DNA from: Solirubrobacterales bacterium
GTDB lineage: Bacteria > Actinomycetota > Thermoleophilia > Solirubrobacterales > 70-9
Reading direction: 5' to 3'
DNA: 32,187 nt
Assembly (NCBI GenBank): GCA_035634215.1
Contig: DASQDJ010000257.1
Coordinates: 1-32,187, forward strand
Part shown: positions 73 through 15,341 of the stretch, in pieces
How positions within the stretch are numbered: the stretch's first letter is position 1
How the letters are laid out: the number at the start of each line of letters is the position of its first letter
Program-made: the position numbers and the translations under genes
Notes under the pieces: model-generated
What the model was told of the DNA's origin: nothing
The model's input: the letters and a program-made list of their open reading frames with translations, nothing else
Databases searched by the model: none

Positions 73-1815
73 ATGCGGCTTCTCGGCAGGGCGACCGTTT
101 GCCTCCTCGTCGCGCTCGGGGCCGTGGTTGCCCTGGGCGCCGCCCCGCCGGCGGAGGAGGACGACCCGCGTTGCCGGGGGCGGAGCGCGGAGAACGTCGG
201 CCCCGACGGCGACGACGACCTGCGTGGAACCGACGAGCGCGACGTGATCTGGGCCGGGCTCGGTGATGACCGCGTCCACAGCGCGCTCGGCAACGACCTC
301 GTCTGCGGCGGGCCCGGAACCGACCTGCTGCACGGGGGCCGCGGGAACGACACCGTGGACGGCGGCCCGGGCGACGCGGACCAGGCGATCGGCGACCTCG
401 GCGACGACACGGTGCTCGGCGGCAACGGCGAGTTCGACGAGGCGGCCGGCAGCCTCGGCATCGACCGCGTCAGCGGCGGGCCCGGCAGCTTCGACCTCGT
501 CCACGGCGACTACGGCTACGACCGCATGGACGGCGGGCCGGGCGGCGACGACATCGCCTCCTTCGCCACCGACGTCGCCAGCGCCGGCGGCGCCGGTGTC
601 TGGGTCTCGCTCGCGCGCCACAAAGCGCGCGGTGACGGCCACGACCGCCTCTATCGCTTCGAGGACCTCGAGGGCTCGGCCTTTCGCGACGTGCTGATCG
701 GGGACGGGCGCGCCAACGTGATCGACGGCGGCCCGGGCGACGACCGGCTGCGAGGTGGCGGCGGCGCCGACGAACTGCGCGGAGCGCAGGGAGTGGACGG
801 CTGCCAGGGGGCCAAAGGCCGCAGCTTCTCCTGTGGCAAGGAGCCGGCGCCGAAAGCGTCCGTCTACATAGAGGTCGACCTCACGCACGGCGGCGGCGGT
901 GGGCTCAACATCGTCGGCGGCACCGGCAACGACGCGCTGGTCGTGGCTTTCGACGAAGCCTCGTCCAGCTTCGGCGTCACCGCGAAAGGCGCGATCGCGA
1001 TCGGCCCCGGCTGTGTGCGGGCCAGCGCCACCCAGGTCTCCTGCGTGGCCGACCCCGCCCGCTGGTTCACGGCCGACCTCGGCCCCGGCAACGACAAGCT
1101 GCGTGTCTTCGGCTCGTTGGAGGGCGCCGAGAACGTGCGGATCGCCGGCGGGAAAGGAAACGACACGCTCCGCGGCGGCCCCGAGGACGACCTGATCGAG
1201 TCCGGCCCGGGGGCCGACCGCCTTTACGGGGAAGCCGGCTCCGACGGCCTGGTCGGCGGCCTGCCGGGCCCCACCTTCATCTACGGCGGCGAGGACGGCG
1301 ACCTGATGGCCGCGGGCGGCGGCTGCGCCGGCGGGGCGATCGTCGGCGGCCCCGGGCGAGACGACGCCTCCTTCGCCGAGACCCAGGCCCATCCCGGCCT
1401 TCTGATCATCTCCTTCCCCCAGGACAAAGCCTGGATCGACGTCGTGCGCGGCTGCGACTCAGTCCGCCTCGACGACTCCAACGAGGACATGGAGGGCTCC
1501 TTCGACTGGGACGTCCTGATCGGCGACAGCGGCCCCAACGCGATGCTTGGCCAGCCGGGCAGCGACGAGTACTACGGCAACGGCGGCGAGGACATCATCG
1601 ACGCCCGCGACGGCTTCCGCGACTTCGTCATCCAGTGCGGCGAGGGGCGTTACGTGCGCCCGCCCAAGGCCGGGCCGAAAGCCAAACCCCGCCCGCCGGT
1701 GCTGATCGGCACGCCGGCCGGCCGCGCCCTCATGGATCCGTTCGATCCGGCCCCGCTCCTCTGTGCCGAGGAGAAGCACGGCGAGCCGGTGCCGGGCTTG
1801 AACAACAGCGGCTGA
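73..1815 (+). CDS. Secreted calcium-binding repeat protein (hemolysin/RTX-type GGxGxD repeats)
   Basis: 580-aa ORF with high GC3. Signal-like N-terminus MRLLGRATVCLLVALGAVVALGAAPP. Many tandem Gly/Asp nonapeptide motifs, e.g. GNDLVCGGPGTDLLHGGRGNDTVDGGPGDAD and GGKGNDTLRGGPEDDLIESGPGADRLYGEAGSD. Confidence 0.75.
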   Translation: MRLLGRATVCLLVALGAVVALGAAPPAEEDDPRCRGRSAENVGPDGDDDLRGTDERDVIWAGLGDDRVHSALGNDLVCGGPGTDLLHGGRGNDTVDGGPGDADQAIGDLGDDTVLGGNGEFDEAAGSLGIDRVSGGPGSFDLVHGDYGYDRMDGGPGGDDIASFATDVASAGGAGVWVSLARHKARGDGHDRLYRFEDLEGSAFRDVLIGDGRANVIDGGPGDDRLRGGGGADELRGAQGVDGCQGAKGRSFSCGKEPAPKASVYIEVDLTHGGGGGLNIVGGTGNDALVVAFDEASSSFGVTAKGAIAIGPGCVRASATQVSCVADPARWFTADLGPGNDKLRVFGSLEGAENVRIAGGKGNDTLRGGPEDDLIESGPGADRLYGEAGSDGLVGGLPGPTFIYGGEDGDLMAAGGGCAGGAIVGGPGRDDASFAETQAHPGLLIISFPQDKAWIDVVRGCDSVRLDDSNEDMEGSFDWDVLIGDSGPNAMLGQPGSDEYYGNGGEDIIDARDGFRDFVIQCGEGRYVRPPKAGPKAKPRPPVLIGTPAGRALMDPFDPAPLLCAEEKHGEPVPGLNNSG

Positions 1816-2002
1816 GGCGCCCCCCGGCCGACGCCGGCTCGCCGGACGCTCCACCGTCTCTCGCCGCGCGCAAATTGCGCGTCACGTGCGCGTCGCGATC
1901 TGTCAGCCTCCTCGTCGTGGCCGGCTATGCGCTACACCGATACGACATCAATCCGTCTCGGGCATCTGCCCGTCTCGACCACTGAACGTCCGAGGTTCCC
2001 AA

Positions 2003-3139
2003 GTGCCGAAGAGAGATCCCACCGTGCCGCCCTTCACGATTGACGAGCTGGAACCGGTCAAGTTCCTGCAGAGAGGCGCGATGGGGTTCGTGTGGCGCTA
2101 CCGGCAGTTCTCGCGGGCGGCCGGCGCGGCCCGCCATACGCGAACGCCGCTGGGCTACGTCGCCGTCAAGTGCGTGGAGGTCTCCGAGTACACCCGTTCC
2201 ACCATCCAGCACGCCTACAGCGAGGCAAGGGCCCAGCGCCAGGGCGCTGGCAACGGCAACGTCGTGGCTCTCCACGACGTGCTTGTCGTCGCTGACGACC
2301 TGATCGCCCTCGTGATGGAGGAGGTCGAGGGCGGCAGGACCCTCGCGGACGAAATCGACGCCGCCCGCCGCCGCCGCGGCAAGCTATCGGCCGAGACGAT
2401 CGCTCGCTGGGGCGAGGAAATCTCCAATGGCCTGCAGTCCTTTCATTCGCCGTCGGCACGCGGGAATGCCCTTGCCCACCGCGACATCGCCCCCCAAAAC
2501 GTTCTCCTGACCCGCGAGGGAAGGGTGAAATTGGGCGACATGGGGATCGCCACCGTGGTCGGCGACACGGCGCTCGGCCCGACCGATCCGGCGCCTGTCA
2601 TGGGCCGTGTCATCCGGATGGCGCCCGAGCAGTACTACGGCGACGGCGAATGGGGGACGGCGGTCGATTATTGGGCGCTTGGCCTGATCGTCTTCGAGCT
2701 GGCGACCAGCACGCCGCTGGAGCATTTTTGCGCCGAGCGGGTCCCGAAGATGACGCCGTCTCCCGAGTACTCCCGCGCCATCGGCGACGCCGTCAGGCGG
2801 CAGGCCCGCCAGCACCCGACGATGCACCCGGAGTTGCGCGACCTCGTCACCGAGCTTGTCGTCAACGACCCGGCCAAGCGGGCCGGCGCCGGACGTCTCC
2901 GCGAGGCGCGGACCCGCATCGCTTCCGGTCGGATCCAGGACTTCGGCGATTGCACGACCGTCCCGACGGCAACGCCCGAGCGACAGGAAGAGCCGTCTCG
3001 ATGGCTGGCCGAGGGCGAGATCGACCAACTGCGGGAGAGCCTCCGGTCGTCTCCGGAAACCGGCAGCAGCGGGGCGTTCGAGCGGCTGGTCGGACGGCGG
3101 CGCGCCGAGCGCCACCAAGCCCACGAGGAGGAACCTTGA
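2003..3139 (+). CDS. Hanks-type protein kinase, soluble, atypical catalytic motifs
   Basis: Kinase motifs in order: degenerate G-loop RGAMGFVW, VAVK lysine, catalytic loop HRDIAPQNVLL, DMG in place of DFG (KLGDMGIA), MAPEQ. No TM segment. Start placed at GTG 2003, preceded by GAGG at 1992-1995. The track ORF start at 1886 looks like a spurious extension. Confidence 0.85.
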   Translation: MPKRDPTVPPFTIDELEPVKFLQRGAMGFVWRYRQFSRAAGAARHTRTPLGYVAVKCVEVSEYTRSTIQHAYSEARAQRQGAGNGNVVALHDVLVVADDLIALVMEEVEGGRTLADEIDAARRRRGKLSAETIARWGEEISNGLQSFHSPSARGNALAHRDIAPQNVLLTREGRVKLGDMGIATVVGDTALGPTDPAPVMGRVIRMAPEQYYGDGEWGTAVDYWALGLIVFELATSTPLEHFCAERVPKMTPSPEYSRAIGDAVRRQARQHPTMHPELRDLVTELVVNDPAKRAGAGRLREARTRIASGRIQDFGDCTTVPTATPERQEEPSRWLAEGEIDQLRESLRSSPETGSSGAFERLVGRRRAERHQAHEEEP

Positions 3140-4134
3140 TCCCCAGCGCGCTCAACAGGAGATCCCGGTTCGAGGACGGCCGCCCCACCGGCCCGCAGGG
3201 TTTCCTGAGCCCGGCGGAGACCGGCGGCGTTCACGTGCCGGAGCGGTTCGGAAACCAGGTGGCAAGCCACCTGATCCTGAACATGCTGAACCCGCCCGGA
3301 CTCACGGTGCCGCTGATGCTGGCGGTCCACGGCCCGCCGGGGGAGGGCAAGACCCTGCAGTGCCGCAAGGTGTTCGAGGCGATGGGAGTGGAGGCCGTGG
3401 CTCCCCCGGCCGAGGCCTTCGAGAGCAAGGCGGCCGGCGAGGCCCAGCGGGCGCTACTCGCGACCTACCAGAAGGCAGGCGAAGCGAACTCGGAGATCGA
3501 CGCCGCTTCACGCCGGCGCGGCGCGGCGGGCCCCCCTTATCTCGAGGCGCTGTTCGTCAACGACCTCGATCAGCGCATCGGGCGCAAGGACGGCGCGATC
3601 CAGCAGACGGTCAACACGCAGCTGATCTCGGCGAGCTTGATGGAGCTCGCCGACAACCCCCGGTACGTCGGCGGGCGGCCGGTGCCGCGAGTGCCGATCG
3701 TGATCACCGCGAACGACCTGACCGCGATTCACCCGCCGCTGTACCGCGACGGACGGATGAGGCGGTTTCTCTGGAAGCCGACCTTCGAGGAGCGGGCGCA
3801 GACCCTCGCGGCGATGTACCCCGAGGCCGAACTCGACGCCAAGCGCGCCGCGACCTTGATGCGCCTGGCCGGCTATTCAGATGAAGCTCCGAGCGAGGGC
3901 CCCGGCTTGGCGCCGAGCACCGCCACCTTCGCGGCTATCAAGGTGCTGCTATACGAGCGGGCCGTCCTGGACCTGATGCGGACCTATGGCCCGTCGGGAG
4001 TCCTGGCGGCGATCCGGCTTGGCGAGGTCGACCCCGTCGCCATCCAGCCGAACCTCTCCTACGAGGCGTTGCTCGTGGCGTTGGAGGAACTGCGGGAATC
4101 CCACCTGCTCGAGGACCACCTGCGGGCAGGGTGA
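3136..4134 (+). CDS. AAA+ ATPase, Rubisco-activase-like clade
   Basis: Walker A GPPGEGKT (3331-3354) and Walker B LFVNDLD. Extended similarity to Rubisco activase as I recall it (KTLQCRKVFEAMGV; QTVNTQLISASLMELADNP; RVPIVITANDLTAIHPPLYRDGRMRRFLWKPTFEER). TTG start at 3136 overlaps the kinase TGA (TTGA) and follows a strong SD, GAGGAGG, at 3125-3131. The upstream part of track ORF 2650..4134 is off-frame overlap with the kinase. Confidence 0.85.
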   Translation: MIPSALNRRSRFEDGRPTGPQGFLSPAETGGVHVPERFGNQVASHLILNMLNPPGLTVPLMLAVHGPPGEGKTLQCRKVFEAMGVEAVAPPAEAFESKAAGEAQRALLATYQKAGEANSEIDAASRRRGAAGPPYLEALFVNDLDQRIGRKDGAIQQTVNTQLISASLMELADNPRYVGGRPVPRVPIVITANDLTAIHPPLYRDGRMRRFLWKPTFEERAQTLAAMYPEAELDAKRAATLMRLAGYSDEAPSEGPGLAPSTATFAAIKVLLYERAVLDLMRTYGPSGVLAAIRLGEVDPVAIQPNLSYEALLVALEELRESHLLEDHLRAG

Positions 4135-4145
4135 AGGAGAGAACC

Positions 4146-4718
4146 GTGGCCGAGACCTACACCTACACCGAGACGTACACCTACACCCGCTCGGAGCTGA
4201 TCACCGACCTCATCGTCGGCGCCTTCGAGCACGTCCTTCGCCAGCTCGGCTCCACCTCGACGTTGCCGGCGGACGGCATCGAAGAGACGCTGAAGCTCGG
4301 CTGGCTGCGGCAGGTCTCGGTGGTGGCGAGCAGCAAGCGCGACGACGGCTCCTCGGACTGGCACATCGCCCTCACGGCGGAGATCGACGCGGAGACGCAC
4401 GTCGCCCGCCTCGCGGTCGCGGCCGAACGCACCATCGCCTTGCCGAAGGAGCGCGCCGACGACATCGCCGACCAACTCGCCTATTACGGCCAAATGTTCG
4501 TCAAAGTCGTCAAGCGCCACCGCCGCCCGAACTGGCGAATCGGCTGGTGGATCACGCCCACGAGCGCCGGCGCCGCGAACCGGCCTCGCTTCAACGAGCT
4601 GACCGGCACCCACCGGGCGACGACGCACCGGGCCAACCCTCAGAAACTCGGTCGCTTCAGTCCCGACGAGATCGACGAGGCCAGCTTCGGAATCGAGGTG
4701 TACGACGATGAGGTCTGA
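4146..4718 (+). CDS. Hypothetical protein, possible bacterial HORMA-domain (Cap7-like) protein
   Basis: High-GC3 ORF. SD AAGGAGA (4135-4141) precedes GTG 4146; an alternative GTG at 4131 overlaps the ATPase stop as GTGA. The N-terminus VAETYTYTETYTYTRSELITDLIVGAFEHVL resembles the (T/S)Y(S/T)YT...TY.T strand plus helix at the start of bacterial HORMA proteins as I remember them. The functional call is tentative. Confidence 0.6.
   Translation: MAETYTYTETYTYTRSELITDLIVGAFEHVLRQLGSTSTLPADGIEETLKLGWLRQVSVVASSKRDDGSSDWHIALTAEIDAETHVARLAVAAERTIALPKERADDIADQLAYYGQMFVKVVKRHRRPNWRIGWWITPTSAGAANRPRFNELTGTHRATTHRANPQKLGRFSPDEIDEASFGIEVYDDEV
4152..4187 (+). repeat. 18-bp in-frame tandem duplication (2 copies, 17/18 identical) encoding (ETYTYT)x2
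   Basis: GAGACCTACACCTACACC (4152-4169) followed directly by GAGACGTACACCTACACC (4170-4187). Confidence 0.95.
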
Positions 4719-5361
4719 GCGCGCTGCAGATCGATTCGAGTCGGGAGCGGTCGAGCCGACGCCGACCGTCAACCTGATCCTGCCCGACGGCTCCACCTGC
4801 TCGATTCCACTCGAGGAGCGCATCACTTCGTTCGGGCGGCATCCGCACAGCACCGTGGTGATCGACGATCCCACTGTGTCCTCGACCCATTTGACGTTGG
4901 AGAGGGTCGGCGGCCAGATCAAGGTGCGTGACGAGTCCTCGTACGGCACCCGGCTGCAGGGCGCCCTCCTCGTGTCGGAACGCTCGATCAAGGTCCACCA
5001 CGGGCAATCGATCACCTTTGGCGGCGACGACCAGGGTCGCTACCAGCTGGTGGTCCGCGATCCGTCCGAGCACGTGCCGACGGAGCCCCCTCGCCATCGA
5101 CCGGACCGCATTCGCCTTCCGGCTCCCCTGCAACGCATCGCGGAGGCGCTCGTGTACCAGTACGTCGAGCGAGTCGGGCCGGCGCCCCGGGCGGCGAGCG
5201 TCGAGGAGATCGCGGAGCGGCTGGAGGTCCATCCCGCGACGATCCGGCGGGGCCTTCACGACCTCGAGTCGATCCTCAAGATCGATGCCGATCTACGCGG
5301 CCCCAAGCGCCAGCAGGCCCTCGCCGAGCGCATCCTGCTGACCGACGCCCACCGATCGTAG
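4708..5361 (+). CDS. FHA-domain protein with C-terminal helix-turn-helix (putative phosphothreonine-dependent DNA-binding regulator)
   Basis: FHA signature: FGR...VVIDDPTVSSTHLTLERVGGQIKVRDESSYGTRLQG. C-terminal wHTH-like ASVEEIAERLEVHPATIRRGLHDLESIL. ATG 4708 overlaps the preceding gene by 11 nt. Confidence 0.85.
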   Translation: MRSERAADRFESGAVEPTPTVNLILPDGSTCSIPLEERITSFGRHPHSTVVIDDPTVSSTHLTLERVGGQIKVRDESSYGTRLQGALLVSERSIKVHHGQSITFGGDDQGRYQLVVRDPSEHVPTEPPRHRPDRIRLPAPLQRIAEALVYQYVERVGPAPRAASVEEIAERLEVHPATIRRGLHDLESILKIDADLRGPKRQQALAERILLTDAHRS

Positions 5362-5380
5362 GCCGGGTAGGCTTGGCGGC

Positions 5381-5584
5381 GTGAGCCGTCCCCCCAGCGA
5401 CGACGAGGCGGTGGCGATCGCCGCGGCGATCCAGCGCTTCCTCGCCGAGACCTCGGCGCCGGCGGGTGGCGAGCCGCGCCAGCGGACCAGTCCCTGGCAC
5501 CGGGCCGCCCTGCTGGAGGGGGTCGGCAAGCGCGTGACGCTCGAGGACCTGGAAGGCGAAGGAGGAGGCAGATGGCCGTCGTGA
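5381..5584 (+). CDS. Small hypothetical protein (67 aa)
   Basis: Very high GC3 across the ORF. GTG start. Overlaps the next gene by 13 nt. The DDEAVAIAAAIQRFLAE...W motif is vaguely like small OadG/AccE-type subunits, but this is not supported beyond that. Confidence 0.5.
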   Translation: MSRPPSDDEAVAIAAAIQRFLAETSAPAGGEPRQRTSPWHRAALLEGVGKRVTLEDLEGEGGGRWPS

Positions 5585-5781
5585 AGATCATCGAGCTGGT
5601 CGGCAGCTCCAAGACGTCGACCGACGACGCGGCGCGGCAGGCGCTCGCGCAGGCGCAGGGCACCCTGCGCAACATTCGCGCCGTCGACATCGTCTCGACC
5701 GGGATCCGCGGCGAGAACCTCGACGAGTACCGCGCACATGTGCGGGTCGCCTTCCTGGTCGAGGGCACGGAGGTCGACTGA
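5572..5781 (+). CDS. Dodecin-family flavin-binding protein
   Basis: 69 aa. KIIELVGSSKTSTDDAARQALAQAQGTLRNIRAVDIV...EYRAHVRVAF matches the dodecin pattern. Strong SD GAAGGAGGAGG upstream. Confidence 0.85.
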   Translation: MAVVKIIELVGSSKTSTDDAARQALAQAQGTLRNIRAVDIVSTGIRGENLDEYRAHVRVAFLVEGTEVD

Positions 5782-6176
5782 TGGCCGACGAGGCGACCGG
5801 CGGCGAGACGAAGGAAGTGACGCGCGAGGAGGCGCGGCGGTTGGTCGAGGAAGGCGCGCAGCTGGTCGACGTCCGGGCCGACCACGAGTGGGACGCCGGC
5901 CGCATCCCCGGCGCCAGGCACGTGCCGCTCGCCGAGCTGAACGAGCGCACCGGGGAGATCGCCCAGGACCGGCCGGTCGTCCTCTACTGCCGGGGCGGGA
6001 CCCGCTCGACGATGGCGGCGGAGGCCCTCGCGGCCGCGGGCTACGACGCCGCGAAGCTGACGGACGGCATCGTCGGCTGGGAGGAGGAGGGCCTGCCACT
6101 CGAGCCGGAGGGTGGCTACGCGGCCGAGTCTGGCCAGGCGGCGGCGGTCCTCGAGGCACGGAAGAAGCCCTCGTAG
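5781..6176 (+). CDS. Rhodanese-domain sulfurtransferase
   Basis: VDVRADHEWDAGRIPGARHVPL plus active-site loop YCRGGTRS. The ATG overlaps the dodecin stop (TGATG). Confidence 0.9.
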   Translation: MADEATGGETKEVTREEARRLVEEGAQLVDVRADHEWDAGRIPGARHVPLAELNERTGEIAQDRPVVLYCRGGTRSTMAAEALAAAGYDAAKLTDGIVGWEEEGLPLEPEGGYAAESGQAAAVLEARKKPS

Positions 6177-6251
6177 CCGGGTCTCCGCCCGCGCTCGTCT
6201 CGTCGCTCGAAACTTAAATACCCAAATCCCTGTCAGGTTTTGCTATTTTCT

Positions 6252-6269
6252 CTAGCTCCATGGAGCTAG
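6252..6269. promoter_or_regulatory. Perfect 18-bp palindrome centred on the sulfite reductase start codon
   Basis: CTAGCTCCA|TGGAGCTAG; the ATG at 6260-6262 sits at the dyad. The upstream region is unusually AT-rich and lacks an SD. Confidence 0.4.
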
Positions 6270-8101
6270 TGGTCGACCAAGGCAAGCAGCAGCGGGGGAA
6301 GGGCCGCGCCGGCACCCTCGACAACCCGGAGACCTACGACAACGTCCCGGGCCACATCATCCCGATCATCGAGCGCGAGTTCGACGACTTCGACAACGAA
6401 GCCGGGAAGTTCCTCGCCGGGGCGATGGCCGAAGACCAGTTCATCGGCTTCCGCCTCAAACAGGGCGTGTACGGGCAGCGCCAGCCCGACGTCCAGATGC
6501 TGCGGATCAAGCTTCCGTTCGGCGGCGTCTCACCGGAGCAGATGGAGGCCTTCGCCAGCGTCGTAGAGCAGTACGCGCCGCTCGTCAAAGGCCACATCAC
6601 GACCCGGCAGAACATCCAGATCCACCACGTGCCGCTGCCCGACGCTGCCAAGGCGATCCGCGAGCTCTCCGACGCCGGCCTCTCCTCGCGCGAGGGCTGC
6701 GGCAACACGATCCGCAACGTCACCGGCGACCCGTGGGCGGGCGTCGCCGCCGACGAGGTCTTCGACCCGACGCCCTACGCCGGCGCCTACGTCCGCTACT
6801 TCGTGCGGCACCCGACCACGCAGCTGATGCCGCGCAAGATCAAGACTTCATTCACCGGCTCCGACGCCGACCGGGCGATCAGCGGCATCCACGACATCGC
6901 CTTCCTCGCCCGCGAGCGCGACGGCGTGCGCGGCTTCGAGATCCGGGTCGGCGGCGGCACCTCGATCATGGCCCGCATCGCCCCGACCCTCTACGAGTTC
7001 GTCGAGGCTGACAACGGCGACTACCTCAAGGTCGCCGAGGCGGCGCTGCGCATCTTCGACCGCCAGGAGTGGCTGCGCGTCAACCGGGCCCGCGCCCGGA
7101 TCAAGGTGCTGATCGACAAGATCGGCATCGACGCCTTCCGCGAGCAGGTCGAGGAGGAGCTGCGGGGCGAGTGGGTCGCCGAGCGCGACTTCAGCGCCGA
7201 GCTGGTCGAGCGCCTCCGCTACGACCACGACGAGGAGGCCAACGCGCCGGCGCCGCCGGTCGCGCCCGCCTCGCCCAACGGGGAGCGCTCCGAGTTCGAG
7301 CGCTTCCTCGAGGCCAACGTGCAGGCGCAGCGCCAGGAGGGCTTCTCGACGGTCGAGGTCAAGGTCGAGCGCGGCGACCTGACGCCGGAGCAGTTCCGCG
7401 GCCTCGCCGCGATCATGCGCGAGTACACGGGTGGCTACGCCCGCAGCACCGTGCAGCAGAACCTCGTCCTGCGCTGGGTGCGTAACGAGGCGCTCTTCGA
7501 CGTCTGGCAGCGGCTCGGCGAGCTCGGCCTCGACGAGGCCGGGCCGCGCGAGGTCTCAGACGTCGTCAGCTGCCCCGGCACCGACAGCTGCAAACTCGGC
7601 ATCACCAGCTCGATGGGCCTCAACCGGGCGATCAAGGAGCGGGTCCAGTCGATGGAGATCTCCGACGAGCTGACCAAGCGCATCCACATCAAGATGAGCG
7701 GCTGCCCGAACGGCTGCTCGCAGCACCACATCGCCAACATCGGCTTCTACGGCGCCTCGCTGAAAGTCGGCGGCCGCCAGATGCCCGCCTACATCCCGCA
7801 CGTCGGCGGCAACTACGAGGGCGGCGAGGTGATCTTCGGCAAGCGGCTGAAATCGCGGCTGCCGGCCAAACGCGTCCCCGAGGCGGTCGAGCGCTGGCTG
7901 CGGCTCTACGAGGCCGAGCGCGCCGACGGCGAGGAGTTCAACGCCTTCGCCGAGCGGACCGGCGCCGAGACCTTCGAAGCCGCGATCAAGGACCTGACCC
8001 TGCCGGCCGAGTTCAGCCTCGAGACGATGCAGCAGTTCATCGACTGGCAACGCTCCAGCCCCTACAAGGTCGAGCGCGGCGAGGGGGAGTGCGCGATCTG
8101 A
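6260..8101 (+). CDS. sir: Ferredoxin-dependent sulfite reductase (nitrite/sulfite reductase family, siroheme/4Fe-4S)
   Basis: 613 aa. Cluster-ligand motifs SCPGTDSCKLGIT and SGCPNGCSQHHIANIGFYG. NiR/SiR ferredoxin-like repeats. Located in the sulfate-assimilation operon. Confidence 0.9.
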   Translation: MELVVDQGKQQRGKGRAGTLDNPETYDNVPGHIIPIIEREFDDFDNEAGKFLAGAMAEDQFIGFRLKQGVYGQRQPDVQMLRIKLPFGGVSPEQMEAFASVVEQYAPLVKGHITTRQNIQIHHVPLPDAAKAIRELSDAGLSSREGCGNTIRNVTGDPWAGVAADEVFDPTPYAGAYVRYFVRHPTTQLMPRKIKTSFTGSDADRAISGIHDIAFLARERDGVRGFEIRVGGGTSIMARIAPTLYEFVEADNGDYLKVAEAALRIFDRQEWLRVNRARARIKVLIDKIGIDAFREQVEEELRGEWVAERDFSAELVERLRYDHDEEANAPAPPVAPASPNGERSEFERFLEANVQAQRQEGFSTVEVKVERGDLTPEQFRGLAAIMREYTGGYARSTVQQNLVLRWVRNEALFDVWQRLGELGLDEAGPREVSDVVSCPGTDSCKLGITSSMGLNRAIKERVQSMEISDELTKRIHIKMSGCPNGCSQHHIANIGFYGASLKVGGRQMPAYIPHVGGNYEGGEVIFGKRLKSRLPAKRVPEAVERWLRLYEAERADGEEFNAFAERTGAETFEAAIKDLTLPAEFSLETMQQFIDWQRSSPYKVERGEGECAI

Positions 8102-8796
8102 TGAACCCCGTCGCCACCCCCACAGAGATCGACGCCGAGGCGATTGCCGCCGAGCTGGAGGAGAAGAGCGCCGGCGAGGCGATCGAGTGGATGTTCGAGA
8201 CCTTCGGCGAGCGCCACTACATCGCCTGCTCGTTCCAGAAGACGAGCTCGGTGACCGCGCACCTGGCCGCGCGGATCAATCCCGAGGCCCGCTTCTTCTA
8301 TCTGGATACCGACGTTCTCTTCCCGGAGACCTACGAGACGCGCGACCGGCTCGCCGAGCATCTCGGCGTCGAGTTCGACCGCTTCCACAACCTGACGCTG
8401 GCCGAGCAGGCCGAGCGGCATGGCGACGAGCTGTGGAAGCGCGACCCCGACGCCTGCTGCGGGCTGCGCAAGGTCGAGCCGATGCGGAGGGCGCTTTCTT
8501 CCGTAGACTGCTGGCTCGCCGGCGTCCGCCGCGAGGACTCAGCCAGCCGCGCCAAGACCCCCAAGTTCGCCTGGGACAAGCGGTTCGAGTTGTGGAAGCT
8601 GAACCCGATCGCGGACTGGACCGAGCGCGACGTCTGGAACTACATCCGTGAGCACCACCTCCCGTACAACCCGCTCCACGACCACGGCTACCCGTCGATC
8701 GGCTGCACGCACTGCACCAAGCCGGTCGTCGCGGGCGGCTCGGCGCGCGACGGCCGCTGGGTCGGCCTCGCCAAGACGGAGTGCGGGCTCAACTAG
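8101..8796 (+). CDS. cysH: Adenosine 5'-phosphosulfate (APS) reductase, Fe-S type
   Basis: PAPS/APS reductase fold (IACSFQKTSSV, C-terminal ECGLN). Carries the CC (DACCGLRKV) and CxxC (GCTHCT) cysteine pairs typical of the Fe-S APS-reductase subclass. ATG 8101 overlaps the sir stop (TGATG); an alternative GTG lies at 8089. Confidence 0.9.
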   Translation: MNPVATPTEIDAEAIAAELEEKSAGEAIEWMFETFGERHYIACSFQKTSSVTAHLAARINPEARFFYLDTDVLFPETYETRDRLAEHLGVEFDRFHNLTLAEQAERHGDELWKRDPDACCGLRKVEPMRRALSSVDCWLAGVRREDSASRAKTPKFAWDKRFELWKLNPIADWTERDVWNYIREHHLPYNPLHDHGYPSIGCTHCTKPVVAGGSARDGRWVGLAKTECGLN

Positions 8797-8878
8797 CGCA
8801 GTCGCTCCGGCTCGCTTCCAGTAGAAGACCTAGTCCCCCGACGACCACGTCCCCCCGAACGATTGGTGAAACGACTTC

Positions 8879-9955
8879 ATGACCGAGACCATGGCTGAGC
8901 TGTCCCTGACCCTCTCTGAGCGCCACACCGCCGACTTCGAGATGATCGGCAACGGCGGCTTCGCGCCGCTGACCGGCTTCCAGGGCGCCGCCGACTGGGA
9001 GCGCGTCTGTGCCGAGATGCGGACCGCCGACGGCGATTACTGGCCGATCCCGATCACCCTGGCCACCGACCTCGATTGCTCGGTCGGCGACGTTGTCGCC
9101 CTCTCCAGCGACGAAGGCAAGCCGCTGGGACGGATCACGGTCGAGGAGATCTTCGAGCGTGACGTCAAGCGCGAGGCCGAGCTGGTCTACCGCACGACCG
9201 ACGAGGCGCACCCGGGCGTGGCGGCGATCTACGAGGAGGGGGCGCGCTGCATCGCCGGCCCGGTCGAGGTCGACGCGCTGCCCGACCACGAAGAGGCGTT
9301 CATGAAGCGCTACCTGACCGCCGAGGAGTCGCGCAAGGCGTTCGCCGAGCGCGGCTGGAAGCGCGTGGTCGCCTTCCAGACCCGCAACCCGATCCACCGC
9401 GCCCACGAGTACCTCACCAAGGCGGCGCTGGAGATCACCGACGGCCTCTTCATCCACCCGCTGATCGGCAAGACCAAGGCCGGCGACATCCCGGCCGACG
9501 TGCGGATGCGCTGCTACGAGGTCCTGATGGAGAAGTACTACCCCCAGGACCGGGTCATCCTCGGCGTCTTCCCCTCGAAGATGCACTACGCCGGCCCGCG
9601 GGAGGCGATCCTGCACGCGATCGCGCGGCGCAACTACGGCGCCACCCACTTCATCGTCGGACGTGACCATGCCGGTGTCGGCGACTACTACGGCACCTAC
9701 GACGCGCAGCACATCTTCGACGAGGTGGACACGAAGGAGCTCGGCATCGAGCCGCTCTTCTTCGAGCACAGCTTCTGGTGCAACGAGTGCGAGGGAATGG
9801 CGTCGGGCAAGACCTGCCCGCACGGCAACGAGGCGCACGTGTTCCTGAGCGGCACCAAGGTGCGCGAGATGCTCGGCAACGGCGAAAGGCCGCCGCAGGA
9901 GTTCTCGCGCAACGAGGTCGCCGACATCCTGATCGACGCTTACAAGGAGGACTGA
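8879..9955 (+). CDS. sat: Sulfate adenylyltransferase (ATP sulfurylase, homo-oligomeric type)
   Basis: QTRNPIHRAHEYL and GRDHAGVG motifs; about 358 aa. Confidence 0.9.
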   Translation: MTETMAELSLTLSERHTADFEMIGNGGFAPLTGFQGAADWERVCAEMRTADGDYWPIPITLATDLDCSVGDVVALSSDEGKPLGRITVEEIFERDVKREAELVYRTTDEAHPGVAAIYEEGARCIAGPVEVDALPDHEEAFMKRYLTAEESRKAFAERGWKRVVAFQTRNPIHRAHEYLTKAALEITDGLFIHPLIGKTKAGDIPADVRMRCYEVLMEKYYPQDRVILGVFPSKMHYAGPREAILHAIARRNYGATHFIVGRDHAGVGDYYGTYDAQHIFDEVDTKELGIEPLFFEHSFWCNECEGMASGKTCPHGNEAHVFLSGTKVREMLGNGERPPQEFSRNEVADILIDAYKED

Positions 9956-9962
9956 CGTAGCG

Positions 9963-10514
9963 ATGGCCGACAAGGGATTCACCCTCTGGTTCACCGGGCT
10001 CTCCGGGGCCGGCAAGACGACCATCTCCGGGATCCTGGAGAAGGAGCTGCGCGAGCGCGGCTCGAAGCTCGAGATCCTCGACGGCGACGTCGTGCGCGAA
10101 AACCTCTCCAAGGGGCTCGGCTTCTCCAAAGAGGACCGCGACACCAACGTGCGCCGCATCGCCTTCGTCGCCGACCTGCTCAGCCGCAACGGCGTGCCGG
10201 TGATCACCGCCGCGATCTCCCCCTACAAGGAGATTCGCGACGAGGCCCGCGAGACGATGGGCGACCGCTTCATCGAGGTGTACGTGAAGGCGTCGGTCGA
10301 CACCTGCGCCGACCGCGACGTCAAGGGCCTCTACAAGAAAGCCTTCGCCGGCGAGATCAAGGAATTCACCGGCGTCTCGGATCCCTACGAGGCCCCCGAG
10401 AACCCCGAGGTCGTCTGCGACACCGAAAGCGAAACCCCTGAGGAGTCGGCGCAGAAGCTGATTGCCTACCTCGAGCAGCGCGACCTGCTGCCGGCGGCAC
10501 CAGTAGCCGCTTAG
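9963..10514 (+). CDS. cysC: Adenylylsulfate (APS) kinase
   Basis: FTLWFTGLSGAGKTTI P-loop, LDGDVVR, and family-typical length of 183 aa. Confidence 0.95.
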   Translation: MADKGFTLWFTGLSGAGKTTISGILEKELRERGSKLEILDGDVVRENLSKGLGFSKEDRDTNVRRIAFVADLLSRNGVPVITAAISPYKEIRDEARETMGDRFIEVYVKASVDTCADRDVKGLYKKAFAGEIKEFTGVSDPYEAPENPEVVCDTESETPEESAQKLIAYLEQRDLLPAAPVAA

Positions 10515-10720: not shown

Positions 10721-10787
10721 TCTTGACGCGCCCCAGGGGTGGGGCGTGGCGCTCACCAAGCGTCTACTTCAAGAGAAGGGAACCACG

Positions 10788-11441
10788 ATGAGCATGAAGC
10801 TCAAGGTCCTCGGTCTGGGGATCCTTGCCGTCATGGCAACGAGTGCGTTCACGGTGATGAACGCCTCGGCCCAAGATCAGCCAAACAGTCATTTCACGTC
10901 AGAGGCTGAACACGTAATCATCAAAGGGAAAGACGCTTTCGGCAGCGGACATTCCTTGCAATTCAAAGGATCGGGCGATCCGATCAGCTGCACAGACGCG
11001 ACGTATCACGGCACAATAGTCGAGTCGGACAAAACAACTCAGGCTATTCAGGTCAGGCCCCACTACACACAATGCGCCACAACGAGCGGCACCTGGGGCT
11101 CAGTAACCGTCCATGTCCCGACCGGCTGTGGGACAAACGTGTATGAATTCACAAGCGGTAATCCTGGCACAATTCACGTTAACTGCCAGATTACGATTAC
11201 ACATCCGAACTGCACCATCCGGGTGCCTGTTCAGACACGAAACGGCGCGACCTATACACAGGTCACCGAACAGGGCAAACACGCCATTACACTCCATGTA
11301 AACGCTCCTGAAATTACAACCCACTACGAGTCTGGCATCTGTGTCTTCTTGGGCACAAGCCACACCTCGACCATGACGGGCAACGCCACAGTCTGGGGTG
11401 AGAACCAAGCGGGAGGCCGAGTCGGCATCACAGCGACATAA
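10788..11441 (+). CDS. Small secreted six-cysteine protein, paralog 1 (unknown function)
   Basis: ATG 10788 follows GAGAAGGGAA. Signal peptide MSMKLKVLGLGILAVMATSAFTVMNASA. Six Cys conserved with the 18337..19005 paralog. Markedly lower GC and A/T-ending codons. Confidence 0.8.
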   Translation: MSMKLKVLGLGILAVMATSAFTVMNASAQDQPNSHFTSEAEHVIIKGKDAFGSGHSLQFKGSGDPISCTDATYHGTIVESDKTTQAIQVRPHYTQCATTSGTWGSVTVHVPTGCGTNVYEFTSGNPGTIHVNCQITITHPNCTIRVPVQTRNGATYTQVTEQGKHAITLHVNAPEITTHYESGICVFLGTSHTSTMTGNATVWGENQAGGRVGITAT

Positions 11442-11497: not shown

Positions 11498-11526
11498 TTG
11501 ACGTTGAGAACATCAGGTGATACCGT
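11498..11526 (+). promoter_or_regulatory. Candidate promoter for the two giant secreted-protein genes
   Basis: TTGACG-N17-TACCGT immediately after the hairpin, about 70 nt upstream of ATG 11595. Confidence 0.3.
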
Positions 11527-11594
11527 GTCCATACTTTGGGGGTACCGATTGCGGCCGCTTCGCAGCGTCGCCGCTTTTAGGGAGGAAAAGGACG

Positions 11595-14500
11595 ATGGGA
11601 ACTTCCGCCAAGAGGGCGCTCCGGATCGGAACGATGGCGCTGGCGGTCGTCACGCTAGTCATCGCTCTGAGCAGCCCAGCCTCGGCGGCTGCGCCCGACC
11701 TTCTTTTGCGCGTCCCACAGGAGGACGGGCTACCAAAATTTGGCGGCGGTGCGGGGCAGACGAACAACCCCCGCGGTGTCGCTGGAAACCCGGCCACTGG
11801 TCACTTCTACGTCTCCGAGTTAGAAAACGCGCGCGTCAGCGAGTACACCGCCTGGGGTCTTTTCGTGCGGGCCTGGGGATGGAACGTAGCCCCCGACGGA
11901 ACTCCGGGCGACACGTCAAGCGACGAATTGGAGACGTGCGGCCCGCCTCAGCCGGAAGCAGAACCCTCCCCGGATCTTTGTCAAGCGGGGAATGCAGGCC
12001 CTGGTAAGGGCCAGCTCGACTGGCCGATGGGCCTCGCGGTCGACCCCAGCGGCGACGTCTACGTGTTTGAGTTCTTCAACCGACGCGTCCAGAAATTCAG
12101 CTCGTCGGGGGAGTTCCTGCTGATGTTCGGCGCCGACGTCAACCAGACCAAAGTTGGCGAAGGGGCCTCCGGAGCGCAACGGAACGTCTGCACGGACGCG
12201 TCCGGCGACACCTGTCAGGCGGGCACTTCCGGTGAAGGCACAAGTCAACTTGACGCGACCCTCGGCGATTACATCGACTACTCCCCGGCCGAAGGCGGAA
12301 CGATCCTGGTCGGAGACAAAGGCGGCATCCAGGTCTTCGATACCAACGGCATCCACAAAAAAACCATCCTCTTCTCGGGCGCGCTGTCTGCGCTGGCCGG
12401 CAAACAGGTCAATGGCCTCGACGTCGACAAAGACGCGAATATCTACATCACTCTCGACGCCACCGAAGACGTCTACAAGCTCTCACCGACTGGGGTGCCG
12501 CTCGACCCGGGCAAACCGGGCAGCTCGAGCTTCAAAGCGGAGGAGCCGCTTGGAGTCGCGGTGGATGTGGAGGGCAGCGTCTACGCGATTGACGATCCGG
12601 AAGGCTTCGTCGGAGCGCCCCCTTATGTCCTCAAATACAGCGCGGCGGGTGCGAAGCTGGTGCCGACAGCGGCAGAAGAAGGAGCCGGCACGCCGTTTCC
12701 GGAAAGGTCGTCGGGTGCGCGCCTTACCGCAATCGCGACGAACATCTGCTCGGGCAGCGAGGCACCCGGCAACCTCTACGTCGGCTTCTTCAACGCCGGC
12801 TCCCCGCCTCACGTCAGCTACGTCGACGCATACGGCACCGCTCCGATTGGCTGCGAATTGCCGCCGCCGAACCCGCCGGTAGTGGGCGAGCAGTTCGCGA
12901 CCTTCGTTGGGAGCGAAGAGGCGACGCTGCGGGCGCTGATCAACCCTTGGTTCTTCCCCGACACCACCTACTACGTCGAATATGGGGTCGCCCCGTGCTC
13001 GACGGGCGGTTGCACCAATAAAGCGCCCGTTCCGCCGGCACTCCTGACCCAGAGATCCGTCAAAGCCTTCGTCTCAACGGCCGACGTGATCCTTGAGGGC
13101 CTTGCACCCGGCACGACTTACCACTACCGCTTCGTCGCGGACAGCTCCGGTGGCGAGCAGGTGCACGGCATCGATCCGGACGGAGAGGGCCCGCTGAAAG
13201 CGGATCTTGAAAACGGCATGGAAGGAACCTTCAGGACCCCCGTCGCGGGTGAGCCGCCGGAACCATGCTCCAACGACCCCTTCCGCATCGGACCTGGCGC
13301 CGACCTTCCCGATTGCCGCGCCTACGAGATGGTCTCGCCCCTCGACAAAGGCAACGCCGACGTGGCACTTGGGATCGGCAGGAATAACGTCCGCTACCGA
13401 CTCTTCGAAGTGAACAAGAGCGCTTTGTCGGGCGAGCGGTTCACCTTTACCGCAGCCACGGCTTTCGGTGACGCGGAGAGCGCCGCATTCTCCTCTCAGT
13501 ACCTCGCGGAGCGAGACGGGGACGGCTGGACGAGCAAAGGAATTTCGCCGCCGCGCACCGAACCGGGGCTGCCGGTGGACCTGGTCTTTGGCGCCGAATT
13601 CCATGGCTTCAGCGAGGATCTGTGTCGCGGCTGGCTGCGCCTTTACTCGGTTGCGCCCCTGACGGTCGACGCGATCGAAAAGTTCCCCAACCTCTACAGG
13701 CGCGACAACTGTCTTCCATCGCCCAATTACACCGCGCTGACGACAAAAGAACCACCGAACCGATCGGCCGAGGAATACGACAGGCTGTTAATCGACGGCT
13801 TCTCGGCGGACGGAAGCCACGCAATTTTCACCGCCCCCGACACGCTCCATCCCGAAGCACCTACGCCGAAAGCCGGCGAGGAGGTTCTTTACGAGCATGT
13901 GCCGGGCGACCTGCGCTTCGTCTGCTACCTGCCGACTGGGGAGCCGAGCCCGGAAGCCTGCTCGGCGGGGACCAAGGCGGTGCCGGGCTCCTCGAACTTT
14001 TCGCCGTTGAAGAACGCGATCTCCGCTGACGGCTCGCGGATCTTCTGGACCGCCTATACGACCAATGAGATCAACGATAGCCAGCCCGGCCGCATCTTCG
14101 TGCGGATCGATGGACAGGAAACCGTCGCCATTTCGGATGCGGTGCCGTCTTCGGGCCGTGCTTTCTTCTGGACCGCTGCGGACGACGGCTCAAAGGCAAT
14201 TTTCTCGTTCGTCTCGGGTGATCGGAGCGGCGAGCTCTACGAGTTCGACGTCGACACCGAAACGCCGACGCTGATCGCCGAGGGGGTCGAGGGCCCGATG
14301 GGGGCGAGCGAGGACGCCTCGCGCCTCTACTTCGCCTCGACTGAGGACTTGGACGATGATGGCCCGGGCAGCGCCGGCGCCCACAACCTCTACTTCTACG
14401 AAGCTAATCCGGGTGGGGGGCCCGGGACCTATCAGTTCGTCATGGCGCTGGCAGATGCCGATGTCGGGTCGATGAATCCGAGCGCCCAGGGCGGGGCGAC

Positions 14501-15341
14501 GAGGCCGGTGGATCTTTTGCCGCCTATGCGCGCCGCTCGCGTCACCCCAGACGGGCTGCATGTCACCTTCATGTCGAAGGCGAGCCCGGCGCCAAGTGGA
14601 TACGACAACCGCGACATCGACAGCGGTCAAGCCGCCGCCGAGGTCTACCGATACGACGCCGCGGCCGGCGATCTTCATTGCGTCTCGTGCAACCCGACCG
14701 GGGCGAGGCCGGCCGCGGTTCTCGCTGAAGCCGTCATGACCGCCGCCCGCATCCAGGGCTGGGAAGCAAATCAACATGCTCCCAGGGTGATCACTGACGA
14801 CGGCTCGCGCGTCTTCTTCGAAAGCCACGAGGCGCTCGTCCCATCAGACTCCAACGGCACCTGGGACGTCTATCAGTGGGAGGAGCCCGGCAAAGGCACC
14901 TGCACCACCGCCACCCCCACCTACACCGACACGACCGGCGGCTGCGTGGACCTCCTCTCCTCCGGCCAGAGCGCCGCGCGCTCCCTGTTCCTGGACGCCG
15001 ACCCCTCCGGCAACAACGTCTTCCTCGCCACCCAGAGCTCCCTGGTCGGTCAGGACTACGGCCTGAACGACGTCTACGTCGCCCGCGTCGGCGGCGGCTT
15101 CCCCGAGCCCGTGCCGCCGGGCGATTGCGAAGGGGCCGCCTGCCAGGGCCCGGCGCCGGCGCCCCCGGTGAGGACGCCCGCCAGCGAGTCCTTCCAGGGC
15201 CCCGGCAACGAGACCGATAAACCGAAAGCCCGCAGATGCCCGAAAGGCAAGCGCCGCGTCACCCGCAAAGGCAAAGCGCGCTGCGTGAAGAAGCGCAAAG
15301 CCAGCAAACAGCGCAGCGGCCAGAGAGGGGGCCGGCGATGA
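11595..15341 (+). CDS. Large secreted multidomain protein: NHL-repeat beta-propeller, FN3-like domain, PD40/TolB-like repeats, basic Cys-containing C-terminal tail
   Basis: ATG 11595 follows GGGAGGAAAAGG. Signal peptide MGTSAKRALRIGTMALAVVTLVIALSSPASAAAP. NHL blades, e.g. GQLDWPMGLAVDPSGDVYVFEFFNRRVQKFSSSGEFLLMFG. FN3-like ATLRALINPWFFPDTTYYVEYG...LAPGTTYHYRFVA. PD40-like ISADGSRIFWTAY, TPDGLHVTFMS, TDDGSRVFFES...WDVYQW. Tail RRCPKGKRRVTRKGKARCVKKRKASKQRSGQRGGRR. Confidence 0.8.
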   Translation: MGTSAKRALRIGTMALAVVTLVIALSSPASAAAPDLLLRVPQEDGLPKFGGGAGQTNNPRGVAGNPATGHFYVSELENARVSEYTAWGLFVRAWGWNVAPDGTPGDTSSDELETCGPPQPEAEPSPDLCQAGNAGPGKGQLDWPMGLAVDPSGDVYVFEFFNRRVQKFSSSGEFLLMFGADVNQTKVGEGASGAQRNVCTDASGDTCQAGTSGEGTSQLDATLGDYIDYSPAEGGTILVGDKGGIQVFDTNGIHKKTILFSGALSALAGKQVNGLDVDKDANIYITLDATEDVYKLSPTGVPLDPGKPGSSSFKAEEPLGVAVDVEGSVYAIDDPEGFVGAPPYVLKYSAAGAKLVPTAAEEGAGTPFPERSSGARLTAIATNICSGSEAPGNLYVGFFNAGSPPHVSYVDAYGTAPIGCELPPPNPPVVGEQFATFVGSEEATLRALINPWFFPDTTYYVEYGVAPCSTGGCTNKAPVPPALLTQRSVKAFVSTADVILEGLAPGTTYHYRFVADSSGGEQVHGIDPDGEGPLKADLENGMEGTFRTPVAGEPPEPCSNDPFRIGPGADLPDCRAYEMVSPLDKGNADVALGIGRNNVRYRLFEVNKSALSGERFTFTAATAFGDAESAAFSSQYLAERDGDGWTSKGISPPRTEPGLPVDLVFGAEFHGFSEDLCRGWLRLYSVAPLTVDAIEKFPNLYRRDNCLPSPNYTALTTKEPPNRSAEEYDRLLIDGFSADGSHAIFTAPDTLHPEAPTPKAGEEVLYEHVPGDLRFVCYLPTGEPSPEACSAGTKAVPGSSNFSPLKNAISADGSRIFWTAYTTNEINDSQPGRIFVRIDGQETVAISDAVPSSGRAFFWTAADDGSKAIFSFVSGDRSGELYEFDVDTETPTLIAEGVEGPMGASEDASRLYFASTEDLDDDGPGSAGAHNLYFYEANPGGGPGTYQFVMALADADVGSMNPSAQGGATRPVDLLPPMRAARVTPDGLHVTFMSKASPAPSGYDNRDIDSGQAAAEVYRYDAAAGDLHCVSCNPTGARPAAVLAEAVMTAARIQGWEANQHAPRVITDDGSRVFFESHEALVPSDSNGTWDVYQWEEPGKGTCTTATPTYTDTTGGCVDLLSSGQSAARSLFLDADPSGNNVFLATQSSLVGQDYGLNDVYVARVGGGFPEPVPPGDCEGAACQGPAPAPPVRTPASESFQGPGNETDKPKARRCPKGKRRVTRKGKARCVKKRKASKQRSGQRGGRR

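Follow-up and report, generated by a model that had tools for sequence, protein, structure and literature searches.

A bacterial HORMA-domain protein encoded with a protein kinase, a Rubisco-activase-type AAA+ ATPase and an FHA-HTH regulator in uncultured Solirubrobacterales

Background

HORMA domains are small modules that bind peptides and have two folded states, between which they switch. In the literature that we searched, bacterial HORMA-domain proteins have been described only together with Trip13-like ATPases, in the CD-NTase operons of anti-phage systems that signal through cyclic oligonucleotides (CBASS). The proposal that the HORMA-TRIP13 modules of eukaryotes descended from nucleotide-signalling immunity is founded on this association. 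In CBASS, the HORMA protein's N-terminus is gripped by the AAA+ ATPase Pch2: a ladder of His residues in pore loop 2 (PL2) of the ATPase hydrogen-bonds Ser/Thr residues at alternate positions of the HORMA protein, conservation of this every-other-residue Ser/Thr pattern extends to residue 17, and disassembly no longer takes place when residues 1-12 are deleted (10.1101/694695). Here we describe a HORMA-domain protein found in other company. It is encoded at positions 4146 to 4718 of the 32,187-nucleotide contig DASQDJ010000257.1 (assembly GCA_035634215.1, Solirubrobacterales bacterium), which was analysed at its whole length and will be called the window. An earlier reading, made from the letters of the window without database searches (the sequence-only reading), had proposed that this open reading frame (ORF) encodes a bacterial HORMA protein of the Cap7 kind with an N-terminus rich in Thr and Tyr.

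We consider it probable that the protein is a genuine HORMA protein encoded by the third gene of an autonomous kinase/AAA+/HORMA/FHA-HTH operon, in which the HORMA protein would be reset by threading of its N-terminal ladder, would activate the kinase and would have a transcriptional output. The searched literature contained no account of a HORMA protein associated with a kinase and an FHA protein, nor of one associated with an ATPase resembling Rubisco activase (Rca). A switch made of a HORMA protein and an AAA+ ATPase is of a known kind; the combination of HORMA protein, kinase, Rca-type AAA+ ATPase and FHA-HTH protein is, within that literature, undescribed before.

Results

The HORMA fold

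The interval 4146..4718 of the forward strand is exactly one ORF, running from a GTG start at 4146 to a TGA stop at 4716-4718 and encoding 190 amino acids, with a Shine-Dalgarno-like AGGAG site ahead of it at 4137-4141. Homologues are 190-192 amino acids long, and since all of them begin at the equivalent residue, the true start is 4146 and not the upstream GTG at 4131.

The structure was predicted with AlphaFold2 from an alignment of eight sequences, giving a mean predicted local distance difference test score (pLDDT) of 91.4 and a predicted TM score (pTM) of 0.85. A pLDDT below 50 was confined to residues 1-5, which are therefore predicted to be flexible; strand beta-1 is ordered in the model at residues 10-14, and a C-terminal hairpin is formed by residues 165-171 and 179-186. 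When this model was compared with the PDB by Foldseek, all of the top 50 matches were HORMA proteins (best E 2.5e-5, probability 1.0, TM score about 0.45-0.57). Among them were C. elegans HTP-1/2 and HIM-3, REV7, Mad2, Atg13/Atg101, HORMAD1 and HORMA2 of P. aeruginosa (6p8u_B), i.e. members of five eukaryotic HORMA families and one bacterial family, and no other fold was present. In a viral structure library, too, the best match to the model was an Atg13 HORMA domain.

The evidence from sequence is weak but colinear. The PADLOC HORMA model PDLC00883 matched five of the eight family members (best E 3.8e-4); on the window protein, the match placed residues 1-43 on profile positions 1-43 (E 0.003). 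Pfam bacHORMA_1 (PF18138) matched four of the eight below its threshold (best E 0.057), and for the window protein itself no match to this family was found at E <= 1, nor was the gathering score reached. We also collected the family of the E. coli MS115-1 HORMA protein, the sequence of which is identical to PDB 6p8v chain H, and aligned its 32 members. Against these bacHORMA_1 proteins, hhalign paired residues 8-58 of our family with positions 12-66 (P = 0.007, at a probability of only 5%), a span that takes in a strand, helix alpha-A with the helix after it, and the beginning of the first core strand. By our own reading, the secondary-structure elements follow one another, through beta-5, as the sequence of the E. 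coli HORMA protein would lead one to expect. Scans of the protein against Pfam and NCBIfam gave no significant family match, neither the protein nor the family profile found a match when searched against PDB sequences, and a BLASTP comparison with the E. coli HORMA protein was not significant. As independent profiles indicate one family at one position, the sequence evidence supports the fold assignment, which on the predicted model we regard as sound. Judged by its sequence, the protein is a distant, orphan relative of the one-HORMA CBASS family and, by Pfam criteria, not a member of it.

The HORMA part of the sequence-only reading is thus upheld by a confident model, by PDB matches that were HORMA proteins throughout and by the weak profile matches, including the bacHORMA_1 similarity for which it had suggested looking. 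It had named a lack of profile or structural similarity to HORMA folds, and a model with an unrelated fold, as outcomes that would count against it; both were checked and neither was observed. Its Cap7 label did not hold, since the genes accompanying the HORMA gene include neither a CD-NTase nor an effector, and the AAA+ ATPase among them resembles Rubisco activase and not Trip13 (see below).

The N-terminal Thr/Ser ladder

The N-terminus of the window protein, MAETYTYTETYTYTRSELITDLIVGAFEHVLRQLG, is as quoted in the sequence-only reading, and residues 4-16 of it read T-Y-T-Y-T-E-T-Y-T-Y-T-R-S. The six Thr and four Tyr within 11 residues that had been counted there are found at residues 4-14, the remaining residue being Glu. 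With S16 included, Thr or Ser stands at each second position from 4 to 16 (T4, T6, T8, T10, T12, T14 and S16), so that a 13-residue stretch encoded at 4155..4193 (+) carries seven Thr/Ser residues alternating with bulky ones and is immediately followed by helix alpha-A. In a search of all frames of the window, the HORMA N-terminus was the sole Thr-x ladder of at least six repeats.

At an overall identity of 58-68%, all homologues retain T4, T6, T10, T12, T14 and S16, and the Tyr positions of the ladder are occupied by Y, H or F. The Thr codons vary synonymously among loci (ACC, ACA, ACG or ACT). It follows that selection acts on the protein and that the ACCTACACC repeat is no artefact of the DNA. 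The (T/S)Y(S/T)YT pattern that the sequence-only reading had given for bacterial HORMA proteins is also genuine: the E. coli MS115-1 HORMA protein of 6p8v begins with SSYSYTVAETQTFSVT, and the bacHORMA_1 consensus N-terminus is MMSYSYTxxETxTFTxTHARH. The window protein has an N-terminus of just this type, with alternate Ser/Thr residues leading into helix alpha-A.

The AAA+ ATPase

The gene directly upstream (3136..4134, +), whose TTG start overlaps the stop codon of the preceding kinase gene, encodes a AAA+ ATPase of 332 amino acids (PF00004 at 1.3e-12), the putative remodeller of the HORMA protein. Its best PDB matches were Rubisco activases, namely the Nostoc Rca-like protein 6z1d (E 1.3e-38), tobacco 3t15 (E 1.5e-33) and Arabidopsis 4w5w (E 1.9e-32). 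These were followed by VAT, AFG2, Rpt and Cdc48, and TRIP13/Pch2 was absent from the matches at E <= 0.01. Identity to Nostoc Rca (NosRca) is 41% over 193 aligned positions of the AAA+ core. Walker A (GxxGEGKT), Walker B (NDLD), sensor-1 and the arginine fingers (RDGRMRRF) are conserved, pore loop 1 (PL1) is non-canonical and of Rca type, and PL2 reads IQQTVNTQL as compared with TQYTVNTQL in Rca, TVNTQL being common to both. Going by these comparisons, the protein is a homologue of green-type Rubisco activase and not a Trip13/Pch2 protein. About ten relatives were retrieved, mostly on contigs bearing the HORMA family.

How green-type Rca engages its substrate is known from the complex of NosRca with Rubisco, in which RbcL residues Ala4, Thr6, Thr8 and Thr10 lie in successive PL1/PL2 pockets while the bulky alternates face the channel; truncation of the RbcL N-terminus abolishes activation by Rca (10.1101/2020.05.16.099382). 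The HORMA protein shares with RbcL an N-terminus of small residues (Thr/Ala in RbcL) alternating with bulky ones, and the cassette ATPase shares with green-type Rca (6z1d/6z1f, and 3t15 and 4w5w of plants) the non-canonical PL1, the nearly identical PL2 and the arginine fingers. Because the N-termini that Pch2 and Nostoc Rca grip both carry small residues in alternation, the best reading of the Thr ladder is, by analogy, that of a handle for the pore of the AAA+ ATPase.

Unlike green-type Rca, the cassette ATPase lacks an SSUL domain and the N-domain of the plant enzymes; its host lineage is actinobacterial and non-photosynthetic, and its gene is tied to those of the HORMA protein, the kinase and the FHA protein. 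A true Rubisco activase was considered as its identity and rejected: no Rubisco (RbcL) gene occurs among the genes of the window or of the related loci, the Tyr of PL2 is missing, and the gene occurs in strict association with that of the HORMA protein.

The kinase and the FHA-HTH regulator

The first gene of the group (2003..3139, +) encodes a Hanks-type Ser/Thr protein kinase of about 378 amino acids (Pkinase 8e-28), the likely start being the GTG at 2003, with the longest ORF extending from 1886. In an alignment of the seven complete loci (see below), the VAVK lysine and the HRD and APE motifs are kept, as is a DMG that stands for DFG. The C-terminal tail of the kinase is variable and rich in Pro, and it ends in an invariant G[AS]FERLVG followed by a basic patch; in the window, this tail peptide is …GAFERLVGRRRAERH. 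The closure motifs of bacterial HORMA proteins are short hydrophobic motifs such as EVMEFNP or HAAILFT. That GAFERLVG might serve as a closure motif or a docking peptide is a guess from the sequence.

The last gene (4708..5361, +) encodes a protein of 217 amino acids with an FHA domain (1.5e-11) and helix-turn-helix (HTH) domains (HTH_11, HTH_30), a putative transcription regulator and presumed output of the cassette. It keeps the GR and SxxH residues that bind phosphothreonine (pThr), for which FHA domains are specific, and its linker contains an invariant DPxE..PT[EQ]xP. NCBIfam EspM matches over the FHA region (E 3e-8), with a score far below the equivalog cut-off. PADLOC gave no CBASS match for this protein.

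The four-gene cassette and its distribution

The order kinase, AAA+, HORMA, FHA-HTH is identical in the window and in six further loci (L001, L002, L084, L085, L086 and L087). For the HORMA gene of the window, this bears out the size and neighbourhood given in the sequence-only reading, i.e. a protein of 190 amino acids with kinase and AAA genes upstream and an FHA-HTH gene downstream. The kinase and AAA+ genes overlap by 4 nt in the window, L001, L084 and L086, and the HORMA and FHA genes overlap by 11 nt in all seven complete loci; the cassette is a translationally coupled operon.

At least five different flanking contexts were seen among the seven loci, from which we conclude that the cassette is autonomous. 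The window and L001 share an RTX protein gene and sulfate-assimilation genes in their flanks, and L086 has an RTX gene upstream, on a short contig that stops before any sulfate-assimilation genes. The other flanks comprise a patatin gene (L084), DUF3817 (L085), a pst/PhoU region (L087) and yet another context (L002).

Positions 1868..1880 (no strand), upstream of the kinase gene, form a perfect palindrome, GCGCAAATTGCGC, which has no other exact match in the window. The palindrome GCGCRAATTGCGC was found upstream of the kinase gene in all seven loci, in L087 with one mismatch; the exact 13-mer is located at 5713-5725 in L001, 5737-5749 in L002, 4188-4200 in L084, 664-676 in L085 and 1893-1905 in L086. 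It is AT-centred within DNA of about 70% GC and may serve the FHA-HTH protein as an operator. A scan of 1780-5700 for consensus promoters and terminators was uninformative.

The family is rare. A word-indexed search of 5.8 billion clusters yielded seven HORMA homologues, and an exhaustive HMM search of 1.84 billion representatives at 50% identity yielded one cluster, which was the family itself, along with two repeat-protein artefacts (P0009 and P0010). No HORMA relatives were found in 185,579 GTDB species-representative genomes, closely related metagenome-assembled genomes (MAGs) included; the SucC of the host and its counterparts in the nine nearest Solirubrobacterales MAGs are 84-93% identical. 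IMG/VR viral contigs contained no HORMA relatives and PLSDB plasmids contained neither HORMA nor AAA+ relatives, and the JGI metagenome contigs contributed one more, partial locus (L088). Altogether, the cassette has about ten occurrences, all in uncultured Solirubrobacterales (Thermoleophilia).

Genes around the cassette

Three of the seven loci (window 73-1815, L001 3964-5658, L086 133-1860) have a gene for an RTX/HemolysinCabind repeat protein immediately upstream of the cassette, which probably reflects synteny of close relatives rather than membership in the module. In L084, a patatin-like phospholipase gene (3097-4164) is found directly upstream of the kinase gene, and it is not conserved with the cassette. 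On the 3' side of the cassette, the window continues at 5381-10514 with a 67-aa ORF and genes for dodecin, rhodanese, sulfite reductase, PAPS reductase, sulfate adenylyltransferase and APS kinase, which together make up a sulfur-assimilation cluster. In L001, TetR, DsbA and PIN/RHH genes, absent from the window, stand between the cassette and the sulfur cluster.

Farther downstream, two paralogous genes (10746-11441 and 18337-19005; 63% identical) encode proteins of about 225 amino acids with hydrophobic N-termini resembling signal peptides; a Pfam scan of the first paralogue's product gave no family. Neither of the two very large genes that they bracket, 11517-15341 (1274 aa) and 15236-18175 (979 aa), has an informative Pfam domain, the first showing a weak NHL repeat. 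Because of two drops in GC content, one to 0.60-0.66 that covers 10-15 kb and another at 18-19 kb, this part of the window may be an acquired island. A strongly negative GC skew (-0.17 to -0.21) at 15001-18000 is confined to the region of the 979-aa gene, the rest of the window being near zero.

Discussion

Starting from the HORMA fold, the conserved cassette with its palindrome, the Rca-type AAA+ ATPase and the conserved Thr/Ser N-terminus, we infer how the HORMA switch could drive the kinase and the regulator. The closed, peptide-bound HORMA protein would bind and activate (or scaffold) the kinase, in the role that the CD-NTase has in CBASS, and GAFERLVG at the end of the kinase tail would be the candidate closure or docking peptide. 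The FHA-HTH protein would recognise, through its FHA domain, phosphothreonine made by the kinase; as a consequence it might bind differently to the GCGCAAATTGCGC palindrome and perhaps elsewhere, which would make the output transcriptional. The AAA+ hexamer would thread the flexible N-terminal Thr ladder through its pore, unfold helix alpha-A and thereby reset or disassemble the HORMA protein, in parallel to the action of Pch2/Trip13 on CBASS HORMA proteins and of Rca on the RbcL N-terminus. Taken as one self-contained circuit, in which closure of the HORMA protein around a peptide cue turns the kinase on, pThr (possibly on the ladder itself) is read by the FHA-HTH protein, and an Rca-type ATPase recruited independently of Trip13 threads the ladder to reset the system, the scheme is tentative, and we hold it to be possible but short of probable.

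Several observations weigh against this scheme. Firstly, neither an input sensor nor an effector is obvious among the proteins of the cassette. Secondly, the catalytic loop of the kinase, around residue 160, reads HRD-I-A-P-Q-N in the window and HRD-[IV]-A-P-x-N among the orthologues (L086 has HHD). The kinase was aligned with NEK2, PAK4 and PknB, and the comparison with NEK2 and PAK4 confirms that each of the seven has Ala where HRDxKxxN has Lys; kinase activity is uncertain because this Lys is lost. Thirdly, the PL2 Tyr of Rca (Tyr116 in NosRca, Tyr188 in tobacco), which is functionally essential in Rubisco activase (10.1101/2020.05.16.099382), is replaced in all seven ATPases, by Gln or, in L002, by His. 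An AlphaFold2 model of the ATPase, built from nine sequences, had a pLDDT of 45.8 and was discarded and not used for a fold search. The similarity of the HORMA protein to bacHORMA_1 stays below the Pfam threshold, with the low hhalign probability given above, and the proposed role of GAFERLVG has its sole ground in conservation within a variable tail.

The strongest competitor to the pore handle was raised in the sequence-only reading itself: the Thr/Tyr cluster might mainly be a multi-site phospho-acceptor for the adjacent kinase and, once phosphorylated, a docking site for the downstream FHA domain. Every locus has the HORMA gene set between the kinase and FHA genes, and the pThr specificity of FHA domains fits a ladder that has only Thr at its conserved positions 4-14, where CBASS bacHORMA_1 proteins have Ser first. 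The pThr-binding residues of the FHA domain are conserved, and residues 1-9 of the HORMA model are flexible and accessible. However, CBASS HORMA proteins, which have no kinase or FHA partner, bear the same alternating Ser/Thr pattern, explained there by contacts with the Pch2 pore loops, and this weakens the phospho-acceptor reading; the AAA+ family found here, too, has pockets in its pore for alternate Thr/Ala residues. Phosphorylation of the Tyr residues is unlikely because their positions are not conserved, and the kinase has an atypical catalytic loop. We therefore consider it unlikely that phosphorylation is the main purpose of the ladder. The two roles are compatible, and a phospho-acceptor function could accompany or replace engagement by the AAA+ ATPase, for example by blocking threading or the formation of beta-1.

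A Cap7-type HORMA from some unusual or degenerate CBASS is a less likely identity still, as is the sensor of an anti-phage module with its effector encoded elsewhere. The protein does resemble the HORMA of type III CBASS (Cap7, PF18138, with Trip13/Pch2-like Cap6; E. coli MS115-1, 6p8v) in its fold and size (170-190 aa), in the Ser/Thr residue at every second N-terminal position with helix alpha-A directly after, in the weak colinear similarity over beta-1, alpha-A, alpha-B and beta-4, and in having a gene that adjoins one for a classic-clade AAA+ ATPase. Its only sequence matches were to the PADLOC and Pfam models of CBASS HORMA, and the best PADLOC matches of the kinase were to the defence kinases mad6 and PD-T4-6. 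The cassette behaves as an accessory module, since its contexts differ and the GTDB genomes, close MAGs included, lack it. Patatins are a common type of CBASS effector, and one is encoded directly upstream in L084. On the other hand, a type III CBASS operon would combine a CD-NTase, a Trip13/Pch2-like ATPase and an effector, whereas all seven cassettes consist of Pkinase, AAA, HORMA and FHA genes only, with no CD-NTase/SMODS gene and no conserved effector, whether a nuclease, a phospholipase or another. The partners of the HORMA protein are instead a Hanks-type kinase and an FHA-HTH regulator, and the HTH is the only output-type domain present. The ATPase is of Rca type and has no PADLOC match, the kinase scores 54 bits against an NCBIfam MAD6 cut-off of 460, the HORMA family lies below the Pfam threshold and forms a single cluster at 50% identity, and no relatives were seen on viral contigs or plasmids.

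Finally, it is highly improbable that the HORMA resemblance is spurious, i.e. that an over-confident model or a generic alpha/beta sandwich conceals an unrelated small adaptor or kinase substrate: the empty Pfam, NCBIfam and PDB sequence searches, the TM score of only about 0.5 (root-mean-square deviation 5-7 Å) and the mere eight sequences behind the model would allow it, but all 50 best PDB matches and the best viral-library match (Atg13) are HORMA domains, independent profiles agree on the family and on the colinear position, secondary-structure order follows the E. coli HORMA through beta-5, and the gene adjoins a AAA+ gene, as that of every known bacterial HORMA does.

The ladder-threading HORMA switch proposed here can also be set beside two further kinds of described systems. 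The eukaryotic meiotic checkpoint module comprises Hop1/HORMAD, Pch2/TRIP13, Mec1-Tel1 (ATR/ATM) and the FHA protein Mek1/CHK2. As in the scheme above, a HORMA protein is there remodelled via its N-terminus by a AAA+ ATPase, a kinase phosphorylates Thr and an FHA domain reads the pThr. In the cassette, by contrast, the kinase is Hanks-type and not a PIKK, the FHA domain is fused to an HTH and not to a kinase, and the ATPase is of Rca type; the resemblance, drawn by analogy, is one of logic only, with no evidence of common pathway descent. Actinobacterial signalling through Ser/Thr protein kinases and FHA proteins (PknB/PknG with GarA/OdhI; EspM) likewise combines a Hanks-type kinase with an FHA reader, and EspM has an FHA domain with a C-terminal HTH as does the cassette regulator. 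Known pairs of this kind are without HORMA or AAA+ partners, and the EspM score of the cassette regulator is far under the equivalog cut-off. Regulation of the CapK/CapS type was considered separately and rejected, as it involves different protein families (an anti-sigma-factor-type kinase and a STAS domain).

Conclusions

In the cassette described here, a HORMA switch appears to be wired to another class of enzyme (a protein kinase), another output (an FHA-HTH factor) and another AAA+ lineage (Rca-type) than in CBASS. The alternating-Thr handle would have been retained although the AAA+ lineage differs, and a grip on such a handle is known from both lineages. The importance of the system is limited by its rarity, with about ten occurrences that all come from uncultured Solirubrobacterales. 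If the proposed circuit is true, it would be the first bacterial HORMA pathway outside nucleotide second-messenger immunity, and the HORMA protein would be the first non-Rubisco substrate for a motor of the Rca family. The four proteins would then make a compact system for asking how HORMA conformation controls a kinase and whether motors of the Rca family can remodel clients other than Rubisco, and they raise the further question of whether the Ser/Thr ladder may be a general recognition code for AAA+ ATPases.

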